DNA of 64,000 nucleotides. Origin: Flavobacteriales bacterium. GTDB taxonomy: Bacteria > Bacteroidota > Bacteroidia > Flavobacteriales_D > CAJJDF01. Positions 21,522-26,211 of this stretch are shown one piece after another. Each line of letters begins with the position of its first letter. The first letter of the stretch is position 1. Location of the stretch: positions 5,074-69,073 of the forward strand of contig CBFHPW010000002.1 of assembly GCA_965657945.1 (NCBI GenBank). The letters run 5' to 3'. The notes below the pieces were generated by a model. It was not told where the DNA came from and ran no database searches. It was given only the letters and a program-made list of their open reading frames with translations. The position numbers and the translations under genes are program-made.

Positions 21522-23543
21522 ATGACAACCTTGCGCTATCCACATTTACTCGAACCTCTTGATTTGGGCTTTACAACGCTCAAAAACCGAGTAATTATGG
21601 GAAGTATGCATACCGGATTGGAAGAAGAAAAAAATGGATTTGAGCGAATGGCAGCCTATTTTGCAGAACGCGCAACAGGTGAAGTTGGATTGATGGTGAC
21701 AGGTGGAATAGCGCCCAATCGCCAAGGATGGACAGCCCCGTTCTCAAGTAAAATGACGAACAAAAGAGAGGCTCGAAAACACAAAAAAATCACCAAAGCT
21801 GTTCATGATGCAGATGGAAAAATTTGTATGCAAATTCTACACTCAGGTCGTTATGGCTACCATCCCTTGGCAGTTGCTCCTAGTCCAATAAAATCTCCTG
21901 TAAGTCCTTTCAAACCCTGGAAACTGAGCGGATGGGGAATAAAACGCACCATCGGGCATTTTGTAAGAGCAGCTAAACTAGCCAAATATGCCAATTATGA
22001 CGGAGTAGAAATTATGGGGAGTGAAGGATATTTGATTAACGAATTTGTTTCAGCAAAAACGAACAAACGAACGGATAAATGGGGAGGCAAATTTGAAAAT
22101 AGGATTCAGTTCCCTTTGGAAATCATCAGAAAAACGAGAGAAGCTGTAGGTGAGGATTTCATTCTCATCTTTCGATTATCCATGCTAGATTTGGTAGAAG
22201 AAGGAAATACTTGGGAAGAAACGGTTTTGTTTGCTAAAGAAATTGAAAAAGCAGGTGCGACTATCATTAATACCGGAATAGGGTGGCACGAAGCTCGCGT
22301 ACCTACCATTGCTACAATGGTTCCAAGGGGTGGGTTTTCTTGGGTAACTGAAAAAATGATGCAGGAAATAAACATTCCACTCGTTGCCACAAACAGAATC
22401 AATACACCTGAAAAAGCAGAAGAAATAGTAGCCAGCGGACAGGCAAATCTTGTTTCGATGGCTCGCCCCTTTTTGGCAGACCCAGAAATAATAAAAAAAG
22501 CAAAAGAAGGAAGAGAAAATGAAATCAATACCTGCATTGGATGCAACCAAGCCTGCTTGGATCATGTATTTAAACAAAAGACAGCAAGCTGCCTGGTAAA
22601 CCCTAGAGCTTGTCACGAAACAATACTGAACTATACGCCTTCATCTCAGCCCAAAAAAATTGCTGTTGTGGGTGCTGGACCTGCTGGGCTTTCTGCCGCT
22701 ACCGTTGCCGCACAAAGAGGTCATCAAGTAACATTATTTGAAGCTCAAAATGAGATTGGTGGACAATTCAACCTTGCTAAGCTCATTCCAGGAAAAGAAG
22801 AGTTTTATGAAACCTTACGCTATTTCAAAACGTTAATTGATCTCTACAAATTAGACCTAAAACTCGGACACAAAGCTTCAGCTCAAGAATTGGTTGGATT
22901 TGATGAAGTTATTATTGCTACCGGAATACAACCTCGCCAAATTCACATCGAAGGCATGGAAACCAATACGATATTGAACTACGAAGATGTATTGAAACAT
23001 GGAAAGCCAGTAGGCAACAAAGTAGTTATTATTGGCGCTGGAGGTATTGGGTTTGATGTGGCTGAATATCTTTCTCATGAAGGAAAATCTCCTTCTTTGA
23101 ATACAGAACTATTCTTGAAAGAATGGGGTATTGATGGAACCAACTCCGTGAGAGGCGGACTGGTAAAACCAGTTCCTCATCCCTCTCCTCGTCAAATCAC
23201 TATGCTCCAGCGAAGTGAAACCAAAGTAGGAAAAGATTTGGGAAAAACCACGGGCTGGATTCATAGAGCTTCTCTTAAAATGAAAAAAGTTAGGATGCTG
23301 AAAGGAGTTTCCTACAATAAAATTGATCAAAAAGGGATTCATATCTCGATCAAGGAACAAACACAACACATAGAAGCCGATACGGTTATTATTTGTGCAG
23401 GGCAAGTAAGTGTGAACCAACTACATGAAGAACTCATAGAGTTGGGCAAAACTCCTCACCTCATAGGTGGTGGTAAATTAGCCAAAAAAATTGATGCCCA
23501 AAGAGCCATAAGAGAAGGAAGTGAATTGGGAGCAGATATTTAA
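21522..23543 (+). CDS. fadH: NADPH-dependent 2,4-dienoyl-CoA reductase
   Basis: 673 aa with an OYE-like TIM barrel N-terminus ([22 protein letters not shown]) and a 4Fe-4S motif [10 protein letters not shown]. The second half carries [12 protein letters not shown] and [10 protein letters not shown] Rossmann motifs. Confidence 0.9.
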
Positions 23544-23935
23544 CAAGAAAACGGTAACCTGCAAATAGGTGCATAAACGGTTTCCTTGCATTTTAAGCAA
23601 CAAAACTTGCCATTTAAAATAAAATCTTTGACGAACAAGCTTTTGAAAAAAAATAAAATTTAACTTTCTCGTAACAACAAGTCGTGGGCAATTAACATAG
23701 TTATCAAAAGCGGTTCAGTATGAATCATATCCGAGTGCCTTCTTTACTTGGATGAGAAAATAAAAAGGAAAAAAACAGACTGTTTTAGGAGCTTGTAACA
23801 TTTGTTTTGTTACAATTTACTAACTCGTTCGCCCTTAGGGTGGGCACAAAAACAAAAACAATGAAAACGAACATTATAAAGTACTCATTATTAACTGCAA
23901 TTCTTGGGATTGCTTTTTGGTGTTGTAATAAAGAT
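23481..23935 (+). repeat. Repeat copy 1 (native): fadH last 60 nt + 97 nt downstream (R, 23481-23637) + shared leader and signal-peptide codons (to 23935)
   Basis: Direct visual alignment to 24576-25032 and to 26055-26211. Confidence 0.95.
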
Positions 23936-24391
23936 ATTAATCCTTCAACAGAGAATCCCAATTTAAATCTTAGCGAAGTTCAGGTTGATATTTTTAAGCA
24001 TATTTTTTCCTTTAAAAAAACTCAACTCAATTCAGATGCTGCTAAATTAGAATTAAATAATTTTTCCGAAGTTGTATTGGAAGAAATTAAAGAATTTAAA
24101 ATCGAAAACCAATATAAAAGTGCGGGTATTTCTTTAATATTTAATTATAATTTTAATGGGAATTTAATGGCTTCATTAAATGAAAATGATACGGAAGAGT
24201 CTGGCTTTTTTGAATATTTAGTTGATTTAAATTCTCCAGAAGATATAGATTGGAAACACAAAAAAAAATGTCGTTCAAAAGACTGTGTAGGTGAATTTAT
24301 TGGAGAAATGATGCAAAAATATGACGGATGTGCCCAATTCAAAATTGTTCAACACACTTTTAGTGCTTCAGTTTATGCTGCCCCTTGTTAA
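23861..24391 (+). CDS. Cassette 1 payload: putative lipoprotein, Cys-rich C-terminus, unknown function
   Basis: ATG at 23861. MKTNIIKYSLLTAILGIAFWCCNKD is a signal peptide with a lipobox-like Cys. The signal peptide is shared with cassette 2 but the mature part is unrelated, and the C-terminus reads KKKCRSKDCVGEF..DGCAQF..AAPC. Confidence 0.65.
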   Translation: MKTNIIKYSLLTAILGIAFWCCNKDINPSTENPNLNLSEVQVDIFKHIFSFKKTQLNSDAAKLELNNFSEVVLEEIKEFKIENQYKSAGISLIFNYNFNGNLMASLNENDTEESGFFEYLVDLNSPEDIDWKHKKKCRSKDCVGEFIGEMMQKYDGCAQFKIVQHTFSASVYAAPC

Positions 24392-24492
24392 ATTAACAAT
24401 AAAATTAATAAATACTTGGTTATGTTTAGACCAAGCATTGTTTTTCTTTAAAATGTAAAAAGAAAAAACCATAACAAGGAATAAAAAAACGC

Positions 24493-24527
24493 AGGGCGTT
24501 TGAATTACCTTCAAACGCCCTTTTTTA
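24493..24527 (+). terminator. Intrinsic terminator closing cassette 1
   Basis: Perfect 11-bp stem agggcgtttga / tcaaacgccct, 7-nt loop, T6 run. Confidence 0.9.
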
Positions 24528-24575
24528 TTTGCAAAATCCGCTAAATATAAAATTTGGCAGTTAAAAAGAAAATTG
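24493..24575 (+). repeat. 83-nt cassette-end block, copy 1 (contains terminator)
   Basis: Matches 25972-26054 with one t/a difference, and directly abuts the second fadH-tail copy. Confidence 0.9.
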
Positions 24576-25032
24576 GCCAAAAAAATTGATGCCCAAAGAG
24601 CCATAAGAGAAGGAAGAGAATTGGGAGCAGATATTTAACAAGAAAACGGTAACCTGCAAATAGGTGCATAAACGGTTTCCTTGCATTTTAAGCAACAAAA
24701 CTTGCCATATAAAATAAAATCTTTGACGAACAAGCTTTTGAAAAAAAATAAAATTTAACTTTCTCGTAACAACAAGTTGCAGGCAATTAACATAGTTATC
24801 AAAAGCGGTTCAGTATGAATCATATCCGAGTGCTTTCCTTACTTGGATGAAAAAATAAAAAGGAAAACAAATAGTTCTATTTTTGGAGTTTGTAACATAT
24901 GTATTGTAAAAATTTACTAACTCGTTCGCCTATTGGCGGGCACAAAAACAAATAATTATGAAAACGAAAATTTTAAAATTCTCATTATTAACTGTAATTC
25001 TTGGAGTCGCACTTTGGTCTTGTAAAAAAGAT
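24576..25032 (+). repeat. Repeat copy 2: pseudo fadH tail (R', 2 mismatches in 157 nt) + leader + signal-peptide codons
   Basis: Visual alignment to 23481-23935. It is near-identical through about 24860 and diverges increasingly toward the ATG. Confidence 0.95.
24878..24885 (+). promoter_or_regulatory. Candidate Bacteroidota -7 promoter box (TATTTTTG) in the cassette 2 leader
   Basis: Matches the TAnnTTTG consensus and lies 73 nt upstream of the ATG at 24958. The corresponding position in copy 1 (ctgttttagg) does not match. Confidence 0.4.
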
Positions 25033-25719: not shown

Positions 25720-25723
25720 TTCT

Positions 25724-25963
25724 ATGGGTGCTTTTAAAATTAACAAAGTTGAAATAAGTATAATTTTTCTATTTATTGCATTTTGTACATTTGTTATATT
25801 TATTGGGGAAATGTACTTTTATCACTTTAGTCAGTCCCAAGCAATTTTAAAACAAGAAATTAATCATCTTTTATTTTGGTCTTTTATAAAAGCCTTAATA
25901 ATTAATGTTGGTTTTATCTTTTTGTATTATTCTAGAAAAATAAAAGCCCGTAGCAAGGTATAA
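25724..25963 (+). CDS. Small 2-TM membrane protein coupled to the cassette 2 lipoprotein
   Basis: 79 aa with its ATG 4 nt after the upstream stop. The two hydrophobic helices are ISIIFLFIAFCTFVIFIG and LLFWSFIKALIINVGFIFLYY, and the tail is basic. The track ORF 25652-25963 starts at a TTG inside the upstream gene. Confidence 0.6.
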   Translation: MGAFKINKVEISIIFLFIAFCTFVIFIGEMYFYHFSQSQAILKQEINHLLFWSFIKALIINVGFIFLYYSRKIKARSKV

Positions 25964-25971
25964 AAATTCAT

Positions 25972-26006
25972 AGGGCGTTTGAATTACCTTCAAACGCCCT
26001 TTTTTA
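25972..26006 (+). terminator. Intrinsic terminator closing cassette 2
   Basis: Same hairpin as at 24493, agggcgtttga / tcaaacgccct, plus a T run. Confidence 0.9.
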
Positions 26007-26054
26007 TTTGCAAAATCCGCTAAAAATAAAATTTGGCAGTTAAAAAGAAAATTG
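25972..26054 (+). repeat. 83-nt cassette-end block, copy 2 (contains terminator)
   Basis: Matches 24493-24575 and abuts the third fadH-tail copy. Confidence 0.9.
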
Positions 26055-26211
26055 GCCAAAAAAATTGATGCCCAAAGAGCCATAAGAGAAGGAAGTGAAT
26101 TGGGAGCAGATATTTAACAAGAAAACGGTAACCTGCAAATAGGTGCATAAACGGTTTCCTTGCATTTTAAGCAACAAAACTTGCCATTTAAAATAAAATC
26201 TTTGACGAACA
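26055..26211 (+). repeat. Repeat copy 3: fadH tail + 97 nt (R), 157/157 identical to 23481-23637, then breaks into unique DNA
   Basis: Base-by-base comparison. Identity ends after gacgaaca at 26211. Confidence 0.95.

Follow-up and report, generated by a model that had tools for sequence, protein, structure and literature searches.

A population-variable array of lipoprotein gene cassettes between fadH and ruvB in a Flavobacteriales genome

The interval between fadH and ruvB in a 64-kb stretch of DNA from a Flavobacteriales bacterium (contig CBFHPW010000002.1; the whole stretch is referred to as the window, and all coordinates are positions in it) holds a genuine, population-variable array of gene cassettes. 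A segment of 163 nt, termed R and made up of the last 69 nt of fadH including its stop codon plus 94 nt downstream, was found by repeat finder and alignments to be present three times, enclosing two cassettes with unrelated lipoprotein payloads, pay1 and pay2 (Table 1). A Pfam scan confirms fadH, ParD, ParE and RuvB, and the rest of the window is housekeeping. From this point on, L-numbers denote contigs or loci of relatives and P-numbers denote homologous proteins.

A previous, sequence-only reading of the window had placed three copies of R, each of 157 nt, in this interval. The copies are where it put them, except that each starts 6 nt earlier (23475, 24570 and 26049). Alignment agrees with its mismatch counts, as R1 and R3 are identical over those 157 nt and R2 differs from both at two positions (23522 and 23614); the sole difference between R1 and R3 in the longer segment is at 23480 (A versus G). 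The shared leaders do run into the first 25 codons of both payload genes, with 7 mismatches in the first 137 nt past R and about 79% identity from there through the signal peptide. The ATG lies about 220 nt from the end of R, and each lipoprotein cassette has a leader of about 165 nt beyond a short junction box. Each payload is closed by a block, T, which holds a terminator hairpin with a perfect 12-bp stem and abuts the next R, as had been described, but whose extent is 77 nt (24493-24569 and 25972-26048, one mismatch) and not the longer one first given. The payloads are otherwise unrelated, with no BLASTP similarity between the mature proteins, and are AT-rich (GC 0.28 for pay1, 0.33 for pay2 and 0.24 for the transmembrane (TM) open reading frame (ORF), against 0.41 for fadH and ruvB), both as claimed. 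The scan of window ORFs brought up no recombinase, again in agreement with that reading, and no further copy of R, leader or T occurs elsewhere in the 64 kb.

Table 1. Features of the fadH-ruvB interval, in window coordinates
Feature	Coordinates	Strand	Evidence or remark
fadH (2,4-dienoyl-CoA reductase-like)	21522-23543	+	Pfam Oxidored_FMN 4.4e-86, Pyr_redox_2 1e-28; R1 begins with its last 69 nt
R1: fadH tail (23475-23543) and first 94 nt of 5' module	23475-23637	+	Alignment
5' module copy 1, ending in junction box GTCGTGGGCAATTAA (23681-23695)	23544-23695	+	Homologues head arrays in L091, L092, L095, L101 and L103, away from fadH
Leader 1, with invariant core ATATCCGAGTGCCTTCTTTACTTGGATGA (23727-23755)	23696-23860	+	
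Payload 1 (pay1), 176-aa lipoprotein: signal peptide and lipobox MKTNIIKYSLLTAILGIAFWCC, then NKD	23861-24391	+	
Cassette 1 truncated 3' module: R''-like 9-mer 24467-24475, terminator hairpin 24493-24521; cut at T nt 77	24467-24569	+	
R2: pseudo fadH tail and 5' module start	24570-24732	+	Alignment
5' module copy 2; junction box GTTGCAGGCAATTAA (24776-24790)	24639-24790	+	
Leader 2, invariant core 24822-24850	24791-24957	+	
Payload 2 (pay2), 253-aa lipoprotein: signal peptide and export motif MKTKILKFSLLTVILGVALWSCKKDE	24958-25719	+	
Small 2-TM protein, 79 aa, immunity candidate	25724-25963	+	Co-occurs with pay2
Cassette 2 truncated 3' module: R''-like 9-mer 25946-25954, terminator 25972-26000	25946-26048	+	
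R3: pseudo fadH tail and 5' module start	26049-26211	+	Alignment
5' module copy 3 (variant); junction box GTTCTACGCAACTTA (26254-26268)	26118-26268	+	
parD (26326-26577) and parE (26570-26869), toxin-antitoxin pair in cassette frame	26326-26869	+	Pfam ParD_antitoxin 3e-24, ParE_toxin 1.3e-15
parDE cassette's complete palindromic 3' module; R'' GCGTAGAAC (26875-26883), R' GTTCCGACC (27001-27009)	26875-27009	+	
ruvB, right housekeeping flank	27054-28082	-	Pfam RuvB_N 6.7e-79

Comparison of this interval in relatives, a check that the sequence-only reading had called for, reveals variation in both cassette number and payload. A genome scan with FadH gave one syntenic relative, L004, and an exact look-up of the ParD protein gave L107, L108, L109 and L111. 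L107, L108 and L111, from three sequencing runs, read fadH, R, 5' module, parDE, ruvB without any lipoprotein cassette, and are 98.2% and 99.5% identical to the window on the two sides. L109 reads pay1, T, R, parDE, ruvB, which amounts to one cassette, and has the window's T/R junction with one extra A. Near-identical strains therefore hold zero (L107, L108, L111), one (L109) or two (window) cassettes, with differences bounded by R. L004 itself has a single cassette, in the order fadH, R, leader, pay2, TM gene, 3' module, ruvB, without a second R and without parDE. Its pay2 and TM gene are 99-100% identical to those of the window, against 89% for fadH and 92% for ruvB, and the tract of identity begins within the signal peptide and ends in the terminator stem. 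Genome-wide, identity between the window and this related MAG contig is itself a mosaic of 99.5% (10853-14277), 90.5% (15058-23935) and 94.9% (27054-35556), with a break or indel where window 14277-15058 faces L004 3425-3525. This pattern points to frequent recombination in the population and marks the pay2 tract as one of several recent recombination tracts. The metagenome contig L104 resembles L004 in layout, with pay1 (97% identity), a remnant of another payload and no second R; the remnant (L104 863-1268), absent from the window, is placed between pay1 and the terminator and comprises the other payload's C-terminal end (...VVIGGVGASEGGKYIKAARKFLGG and stop) and a decayed TM gene. In L001, too, there is one cassette, then the full 3' module and ruvB, and no second R. 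More distant fadH relatives (L005-L014) have unrelated downstream genes and no cassettes, and show only that the site varies.

The array belongs to a wider family. The leader core occurs in 14 marine metagenome contigs from one metagenome scan, several of them with two tandem units, and cassettes of the same family, in which T runs into a leader, sit at several other housekeeping loci, with co-oriented genes. Across the family, 21 cassette genes share a near-invariant N-terminus, MKTKILKFSLLTAILG(I/V)ALWSCKK(D/E)E, which combines signal peptide, lipobox and a K-(D/E)2 export motif; CKKDE matches the Bacteroidetes lipoprotein surface-export signal C-X-K-(D/E)2 (PMC5080379). The mature parts comprise at least 10 unrelated types, and most cassettes have a second gene, whose product is a lipoprotein, a 2-TM protein of 57-83 aa or a protease of CPBP/Rce1-like type (PF02517; 4.9e-25 and 1.9e-9). 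The canonical order is a junction box (GTT NNNN GC AATTAA), leader, signal peptide with lipobox and export motif, hypervariable mature protein, the usual partner gene, and a 3' module of about 195 nt that includes an intrinsic terminator; the next leader or flanking DNA follows. A 5' module of about 150-190 nt, to which the 94 nt of R past the fadH stop belong, heads arrays far from fadH. The earlier view of fadH as the docking site is thereby set aside, and the fadH-specific part of R shrinks to the 69-nt coding tail. Nor is the DNA after R3 unique, as had been supposed; it is a variant of the 5' module, and parDE stands in a cassette frame of its own. At a second array locus, which has rpsA/pyrB on one side and an amine-oxidase/rhodopsin cluster on the other, the number and content of the cassettes differ between two strains whose flanks are 99.45% identical. 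The locus flanks examined encode no recombinase.

The invariant core, present in all leaders, folds into a hairpin of 6 bp (CCGAGU ... ACUUGG) whose loop varies, and minimum-free-energy folds of whole junctions (L092, L100 and the window) return this hairpin only. An Rfam scan of 23000-27000 at E<=1 gave just a sub-threshold CyaR match and nothing for the leader core, so the leader is not a known RNA family. A short upstream ORF in the leader (MNHIRVPSLLG) was considered as a leader peptide and rejected, as it is not conserved in L004 or L091, and the Bacteroidetes -7 motif TAnnTTTG is found in some leaders only. The leader core is absent from viral contigs, the array (23544-26325) has no match in plasmid and phage collections, and a signal-peptide profile search, limited by its word index, returned 6 short matches. 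Some arrays depart from the canonical plan. In L091 (1425-1800), in L095 (865-1240) and at the 3' ends of L098 and L100, certain cassettes are followed by a leader-core fragment and, about 140 nt further on, by a new 5' module at the head of a non-lipoprotein gene for a 192-aa protein or a CPBP protease. In L091, moreover, the AAC of R'' is joined directly to a leader core (GCCCATAAC against GGTTTAAT). The array grammar is therefore richer than the canonical plan. At the right flank of the second locus, 5-7 kb away from the end of the array, L094, L112, L113 and L115 carry a proteorhodopsin gene together with a lycopene cyclase/BCD carotenoid gene, which fits a photoheterotrophic marine flavobacterium.

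In the profile and structure searches that had been suggested for the payloads, pay1 is a Cys-containing orphan with a single homologue found (P0017, 94%), no Pfam or NCBIfam match and an unusable AlphaFold2 model (predicted local distance difference test score, pLDDT, 43); exact-protein look-ups of fadH and pay1 gave no record. The family of pay2 is unannotated and counts 523 representatives at E<=1e-3. Its model (pLDDT 73) predicts an all-alpha domain and a C-terminal helical hairpin, and this hairpin bears a GxxxG run, GGPVGGVAGFLYGAVSGA, which by its sequence reads as a glycine zipper. Such tails are present on several payloads of the cassette family. Five contexts (the window and those of P0004, P0005, P0007 and P0013) have a pay2 homologue with a small 2-TM ORF directly after it; these ORFs are homologous, the four outside the window being 31-51% identical to the window's protein. 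At L100 452-1033 a toxin-like gene is internally deleted relative to L092 6872-7924 (122 vs 279 aa), beside a 68-aa TM partner that is 100% identical. Elsewhere, L116 3001-5557 (GCA_947443545.1, CANEXH010000088.1) has a pay2 homologue and 2-TM gene and then small glycine-rich peptides and small TM ORFs. The peptide leaders are of the type MVFSLAFMQGNS...VNVQQ(L/I)GG, a double-glycine (GG) leader, and glycine-zipper tails are common to payloads and L116 peptides; the region looks like a class II bacteriocin cluster. A different and mobile setting of the pair is seen at L084 7115-10177, where a restriction-modification region has the distant pay2 homologue P0004 and its 2-TM gene next to a Phage_integrase gene and an rve transposase.

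Complete 3' modules, 135-200 nt long, are imperfect palindromes. The 5' arm consists of a 9-mer R'' (GC NNNN AAC), 2 nt, and stems of 6, 4 and 6 bp split by conserved A.C mismatches; the centre holds the terminator; the mirror arm, 4 nt and a 9-mer R' (GTT NNNN GC) complete the module. Four sequence types keep this one plan through compensatory changes. RNAalifold finds double changes in 9 of 13 pairs, and 89% of cells are paired, against 70.6% in shuffles (0/500 reach the observed value) and 37-49% in slid controls. R'' is complementary to the box upstream of its own cassette more than to its own downstream R'. For parDE, complementarity to the upstream box (26254-26262; GTTCTACGC/GCGTAGAAC) is 9/9 versus 6/9 to its own R', and for the CPBP cassette of L095 it is 8/9 versus 4/9. 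Canonical cassettes are compatible at 8-9/9, whereas the R''-like 9-mers of pay1 and pay2 match at 5/9 and 6/9, and both these modules lack the 3' arm of the palindrome. A 10-nt inverted repeat, GTTCTACGCA, brackets parDE exactly (26254-26263 on the plus strand, 26874-26883 on the minus strand); these are its only two copies in 64 kb, where 0.04 are expected, and the left one occupies the junction-box position of the 5' module. An extra cassette in L101, relative to L092, has a 14-nt direct repeat, TTATGGGCAATTAA, on both sides. The module boxes do not fit RYYYAAC/GTTRRRY. A reading of the 3' modules as miniature inverted-repeat transposable elements was rejected, since in the parDE and CPBP modules it is the upstream box that the tips match, and not their own far end, and no solitary copies occur in the window.

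The pay1 and pay2 modules are homologous to the native module up to 'GAAAAT' and then jump into the fadH tail at 'TGGCC', such that T nt 77 (about nt 103 of the module) is joined to fadH position -66, and it is to this one junction that the triplication of the fadH tail traces. The partners share an AAAT microhomology and naturally lie next to each other when the locus is in its single-cassette form; both junctions in the window are identical, and the exact string is absent from other loci. One new junction in identical copies, and variants in copy number whose limits are those of the repeat, are what tandem amplification or Campbell-type insertion by homologous recombination would leave, and both are seen here. 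The units here differ in payload, so allele replacement or insertion of a foreign circle is also required. We consider it somewhat better than an even bet that the window holds a short array of a lineage-wide cassette family, shaped by a single illegitimate join and then by homologous recombination. The join would have occurred at AAAT, either as a tandem duplication or as circularisation of the segment from fadH tail to T followed by Campbell-type insertion. The resulting 240-nt T-R repeat would then have been copied, and RecA-type recombination of one R copy with another (by Campbell insertion or by unequal crossing-over) would add and remove cassettes, which would yield the zero-, one- and two-cassette variants of near-identical strains, while payloads may be swapped by homologous recombination within conserved leader, signal peptide and terminator. 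Insertion by crossover inside R, as first proposed, holds up insofar as the empty and one-cassette variants are bounded by R; it needs revision in that L004 and L104 have no second fadH tail and the T/R junction is lineage-specific. The arrays as such were probably first built by an unlinked site-specific recombinase, given that complete 3' modules are attC-like imperfect palindromes; this attC-based origin is partly supported.

Several points tell against the explanation by one illegitimate join and homologous recombination. R-bounded variants fit homologous and site-specific events alike, empty site and array are both possible as ancestral state, and the direct repeat on either side of the extra cassette at the second locus measures only 14 nt, which is short for RecA-type recombination. 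If the assembly is a short-read one, the 157-nt identity of R1 and R3 also means that k-mers cannot separate a chromosomal tandem from an empty site plus a 2.6-kb circle. That same identity would feed an assembly artefact, in which a chimeric path via the repeats merges strains whose single cassettes differ, or an empty chromosome and a free circle; public unitigs do end at repeat edges (L002, L003, L106), and single-cassette and empty variants exist. We nevertheless give an artefact very little credence, because single-nucleotide polymorphisms specific to T1 and to R2 chain pay1, T1, R2 and leader 2 within 141-mers and argue that the tandem is real, the T/R junction is also present in the independent assembly L109, and tandem arrays occur at other loci on independent contigs (L092, L099, L101). 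The fallback of the sequence-only reading, an old local duplication diverged in place with no exchange, would account for the tandem layout and identical junctions, but it is ruled out by a site polymorphic for zero, one or two cassettes among near-identical strains, and sits as badly with unrelated payloads and with a pay2 that is 99-100% identical to that of L004 between flanks of 89-92%. Scarcely any probability attaches to the idea that R, as a fadH tail, serves as att site for small integrative elements which lack an integrase, are mobilised in trans and regenerate fadH whenever they insert. Direct repeats including a gene 3' end do bracket each unit, and empty and occupied sites are bounded by R. 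Yet L004, L104 and L001 have cassettes at the same site without a second R (for L004 and L104, the expected att repeats are thus not always present), the same cassettes lie at loci without any fadH sequence, the T/R junction joins native neighbours of the single-cassette form, and no integrase was found. More probable, though still unlikely, is the reading that an unlinked tyrosine recombinase acts at the conserved GTT of palindromic 3' modules and 5'-module boxes, releasing cassettes as circles and inserting these at several chromosomal platforms, and also drives turnover at fadH, with the R repeats incidental. The attC-like geometry speaks for it (AAC and GTT on the inner sides of R'' and R' respectively, a spacer that is asymmetric at 2/4 nt, the A.C mismatches), as do the strong covariation, the preference of R'' for the upstream box over its own R' in the parDE and L095 CPBP cassettes, the direct repeat around the L101 cassette, and co-oriented, low-GC, mixed cargo that includes a parDE pair as in chromosomal integrons. 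Against it, no integrase was found in the 64-kb window or any flank examined; the armless pay1 and pay2 modules, with their 5-6/9 box matches, lie at a locus whose copy number varies all the same and is R-bounded; the boxes are off the GTTRRRY consensus; the modules are long (135-200 nt) and sequence-conserved, and each cassette adds a leader of about 165 nt beyond the box; and homology breakpoints also fall in signal peptide and terminator. There is a real chance, although we would not expect it, that marine Flavobacteriales harbour an undescribed integron-like system of self-contained expression cassettes (leader, export signal, and toxin/immunity or toxin-antitoxin cargo) ending in attC-like palindromes of about 200 nt, whose circles an unlinked recombinase shuffles among small chromosomal platforms by crossover at the conserved GTT box, the fadH array being a crippled offshoot kept by homologous recombination only.

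As to function, the payloads are probably surface-anchored, bacteriocin-like membrane toxins and the partner genes their immunity genes, a reading suggested by the pairing of pay2 with the 2-TM ORF, the L116 context, the degraded toxin gene with intact partner and the CPBP partners. pay2 is a candidate bacteriocin-like toxin and the 79-aa 2-TM protein a candidate immunity protein. This toxin and immunity reading has to contend with the missing partner gene of pay1, with the failure of Foldseek to match the pay2 model to any PDB fold, and with payloads in which Pfam and NCBIfam recognise no toxin domain; Pfam likewise recognises no immunity-family domain in the cargo, PADLOC and libraries specific to type VI secretion systems (T6SS) not having been used. 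The payloads could instead be variable surface lipoproteins, serving adhesion or evasion of phage or grazers, with small partners that are unrelated membrane proteins. The want of a known toxin fold or domain, the surface-export motif, the extreme payload diversity and the solitary pay1 would all suit such proteins, but we regard this as rather unlikely, in that the pay2/2-TM pairing is kept across distant genomes, CPBP partner genes occur, glycine-zipper tails are also found on the stand-alone GG-leader peptides of L116, and the degraded toxin gene of L100 lies beside an intact partner gene. If the payloads are toxins, abundant planktonic marine Flavobacteriales would be armed with surface-anchored bacteriocin-like lipoproteins that vary from strain to strain and are matched by immunity genes, giving strain-level antagonism and microdiversity in the ocean a concrete molecular basis. 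The arrays also display integron logic (palindromic sites, cassette-specific complementarity, toxin-antitoxin cassettes) in a phylum nearly without known integrons and with no adjacent integrase, which makes them a case where it can be tested whether a new recombination system is at work or cassettes turn over without a recombinase. Because repeats break metagenome assemblies, cassette variation is systematically under-seen.

Apart from the array, the window contains a direct repeat of 154 nt (56664-56817 and 56844-56997; 74% identity, spacing 180 nt) within a lipoprotein-like ORF on the minus strand (56618-57310).

The sequence-only reading had recognised no described cassette system here, but relatives can be named: integron and CALIN arrays (the latter being groups of attC sites with no integrase), rAID arrays (acquired interbacterial defence associated with a recombinase), and polymorphic toxin/immunity loci. 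Like integrons and CALINs, the arrays consist of co-oriented short low-GC genes, each followed by an imperfect palindrome with AAC ... GTT cores; in the parDE and L095 CPBP cassettes the 5' end complements the start of the cassette's own site, toxin-antitoxin cassettes occur, and the arrays break assemblies. Like CALINs in particular, they have no adjacent integrase. They differ in sites that are 135-200 nt long, conserved in sequence, off the RYYYAAC/GTTRRRY consensus and with a terminator inside, and in cassettes that carry their own leader of about 165 nt and a shared signal peptide, whereas integron cassettes are mostly promoterless with the ORF near attC. They also form several small arrays at housekeeping loci, and the scan of window ORFs and of the locus flanks turned up no IntI. 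Bacteroidetes have hardly any known integrons (PMC9024848). The rAID-1 arrays of Bacteroidales have an adjacent tyrosine recombinase and orphan T6SS immunity genes (PMC12247911). The present family shares with them a Bacteroidota host, co-oriented low-GC genes of 100-300 codons, conserved intergenic motifs and cargo putatively linked to interbacterial antagonism; it differs in encoding candidate toxin lipoproteins with partner genes, and in that no tyrosine recombinase was found heading an array in the window or the flanks examined.

Contact-dependent inhibition (CDI) and Rhs loci and the streptococcal blp bacteriocin-immunity regions combine a conserved trafficking part with a variable toxic part and a downstream immunity gene, and have tandem orphan units and exchange by homologous recombination. 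Orphan cassettes at CDI and Rhs polymorphic toxin/immunity loci are described by Zhang et al. 2012 (PMC3482391). The cassettes resemble these in their conserved 5' trafficking part and hypervariable remainder (21 genes, at least 10 mature types), in a putative immunity gene directly downstream, in tandem units and in exchange within conserved parts. The conserved part here, however, is limited to the 5' untranslated region, lipoprotein signal peptide and export motif, and a large delivery protein, a double-glycine leader with its ABC transporter and a recognised toxin domain are all absent. Lipoprotein toxins of the SitA type have nuclease-type toxin domains. Myxobacterial SitA/SitI are lipobox-targeted polymorphic toxins (PMC5562445), and Caulobacter CdzC/D with CdzI are surface-associated glycine-zipper bacteriocins with a small transmembrane immunity protein (PMC5380434). 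No sequence homology of the payloads to Cdz or SitA was detected, and both systems differ in delivery, Cdz using type I secretion of small peptides and SitA requiring TraAB outer-membrane exchange. Aquatic hosts, a candidate toxin on the cell surface, glycine zippers, a small transmembrane immunity candidate and a lipobox are points in common, and by analogy the candidate toxin/immunity pairs fit the pattern of Caulobacter Cdz and the lipoprotein SitA. With the recombination mechanism partly resolved, the cassette family stands as a new variant of integron-like or polymorphic-toxin systems.

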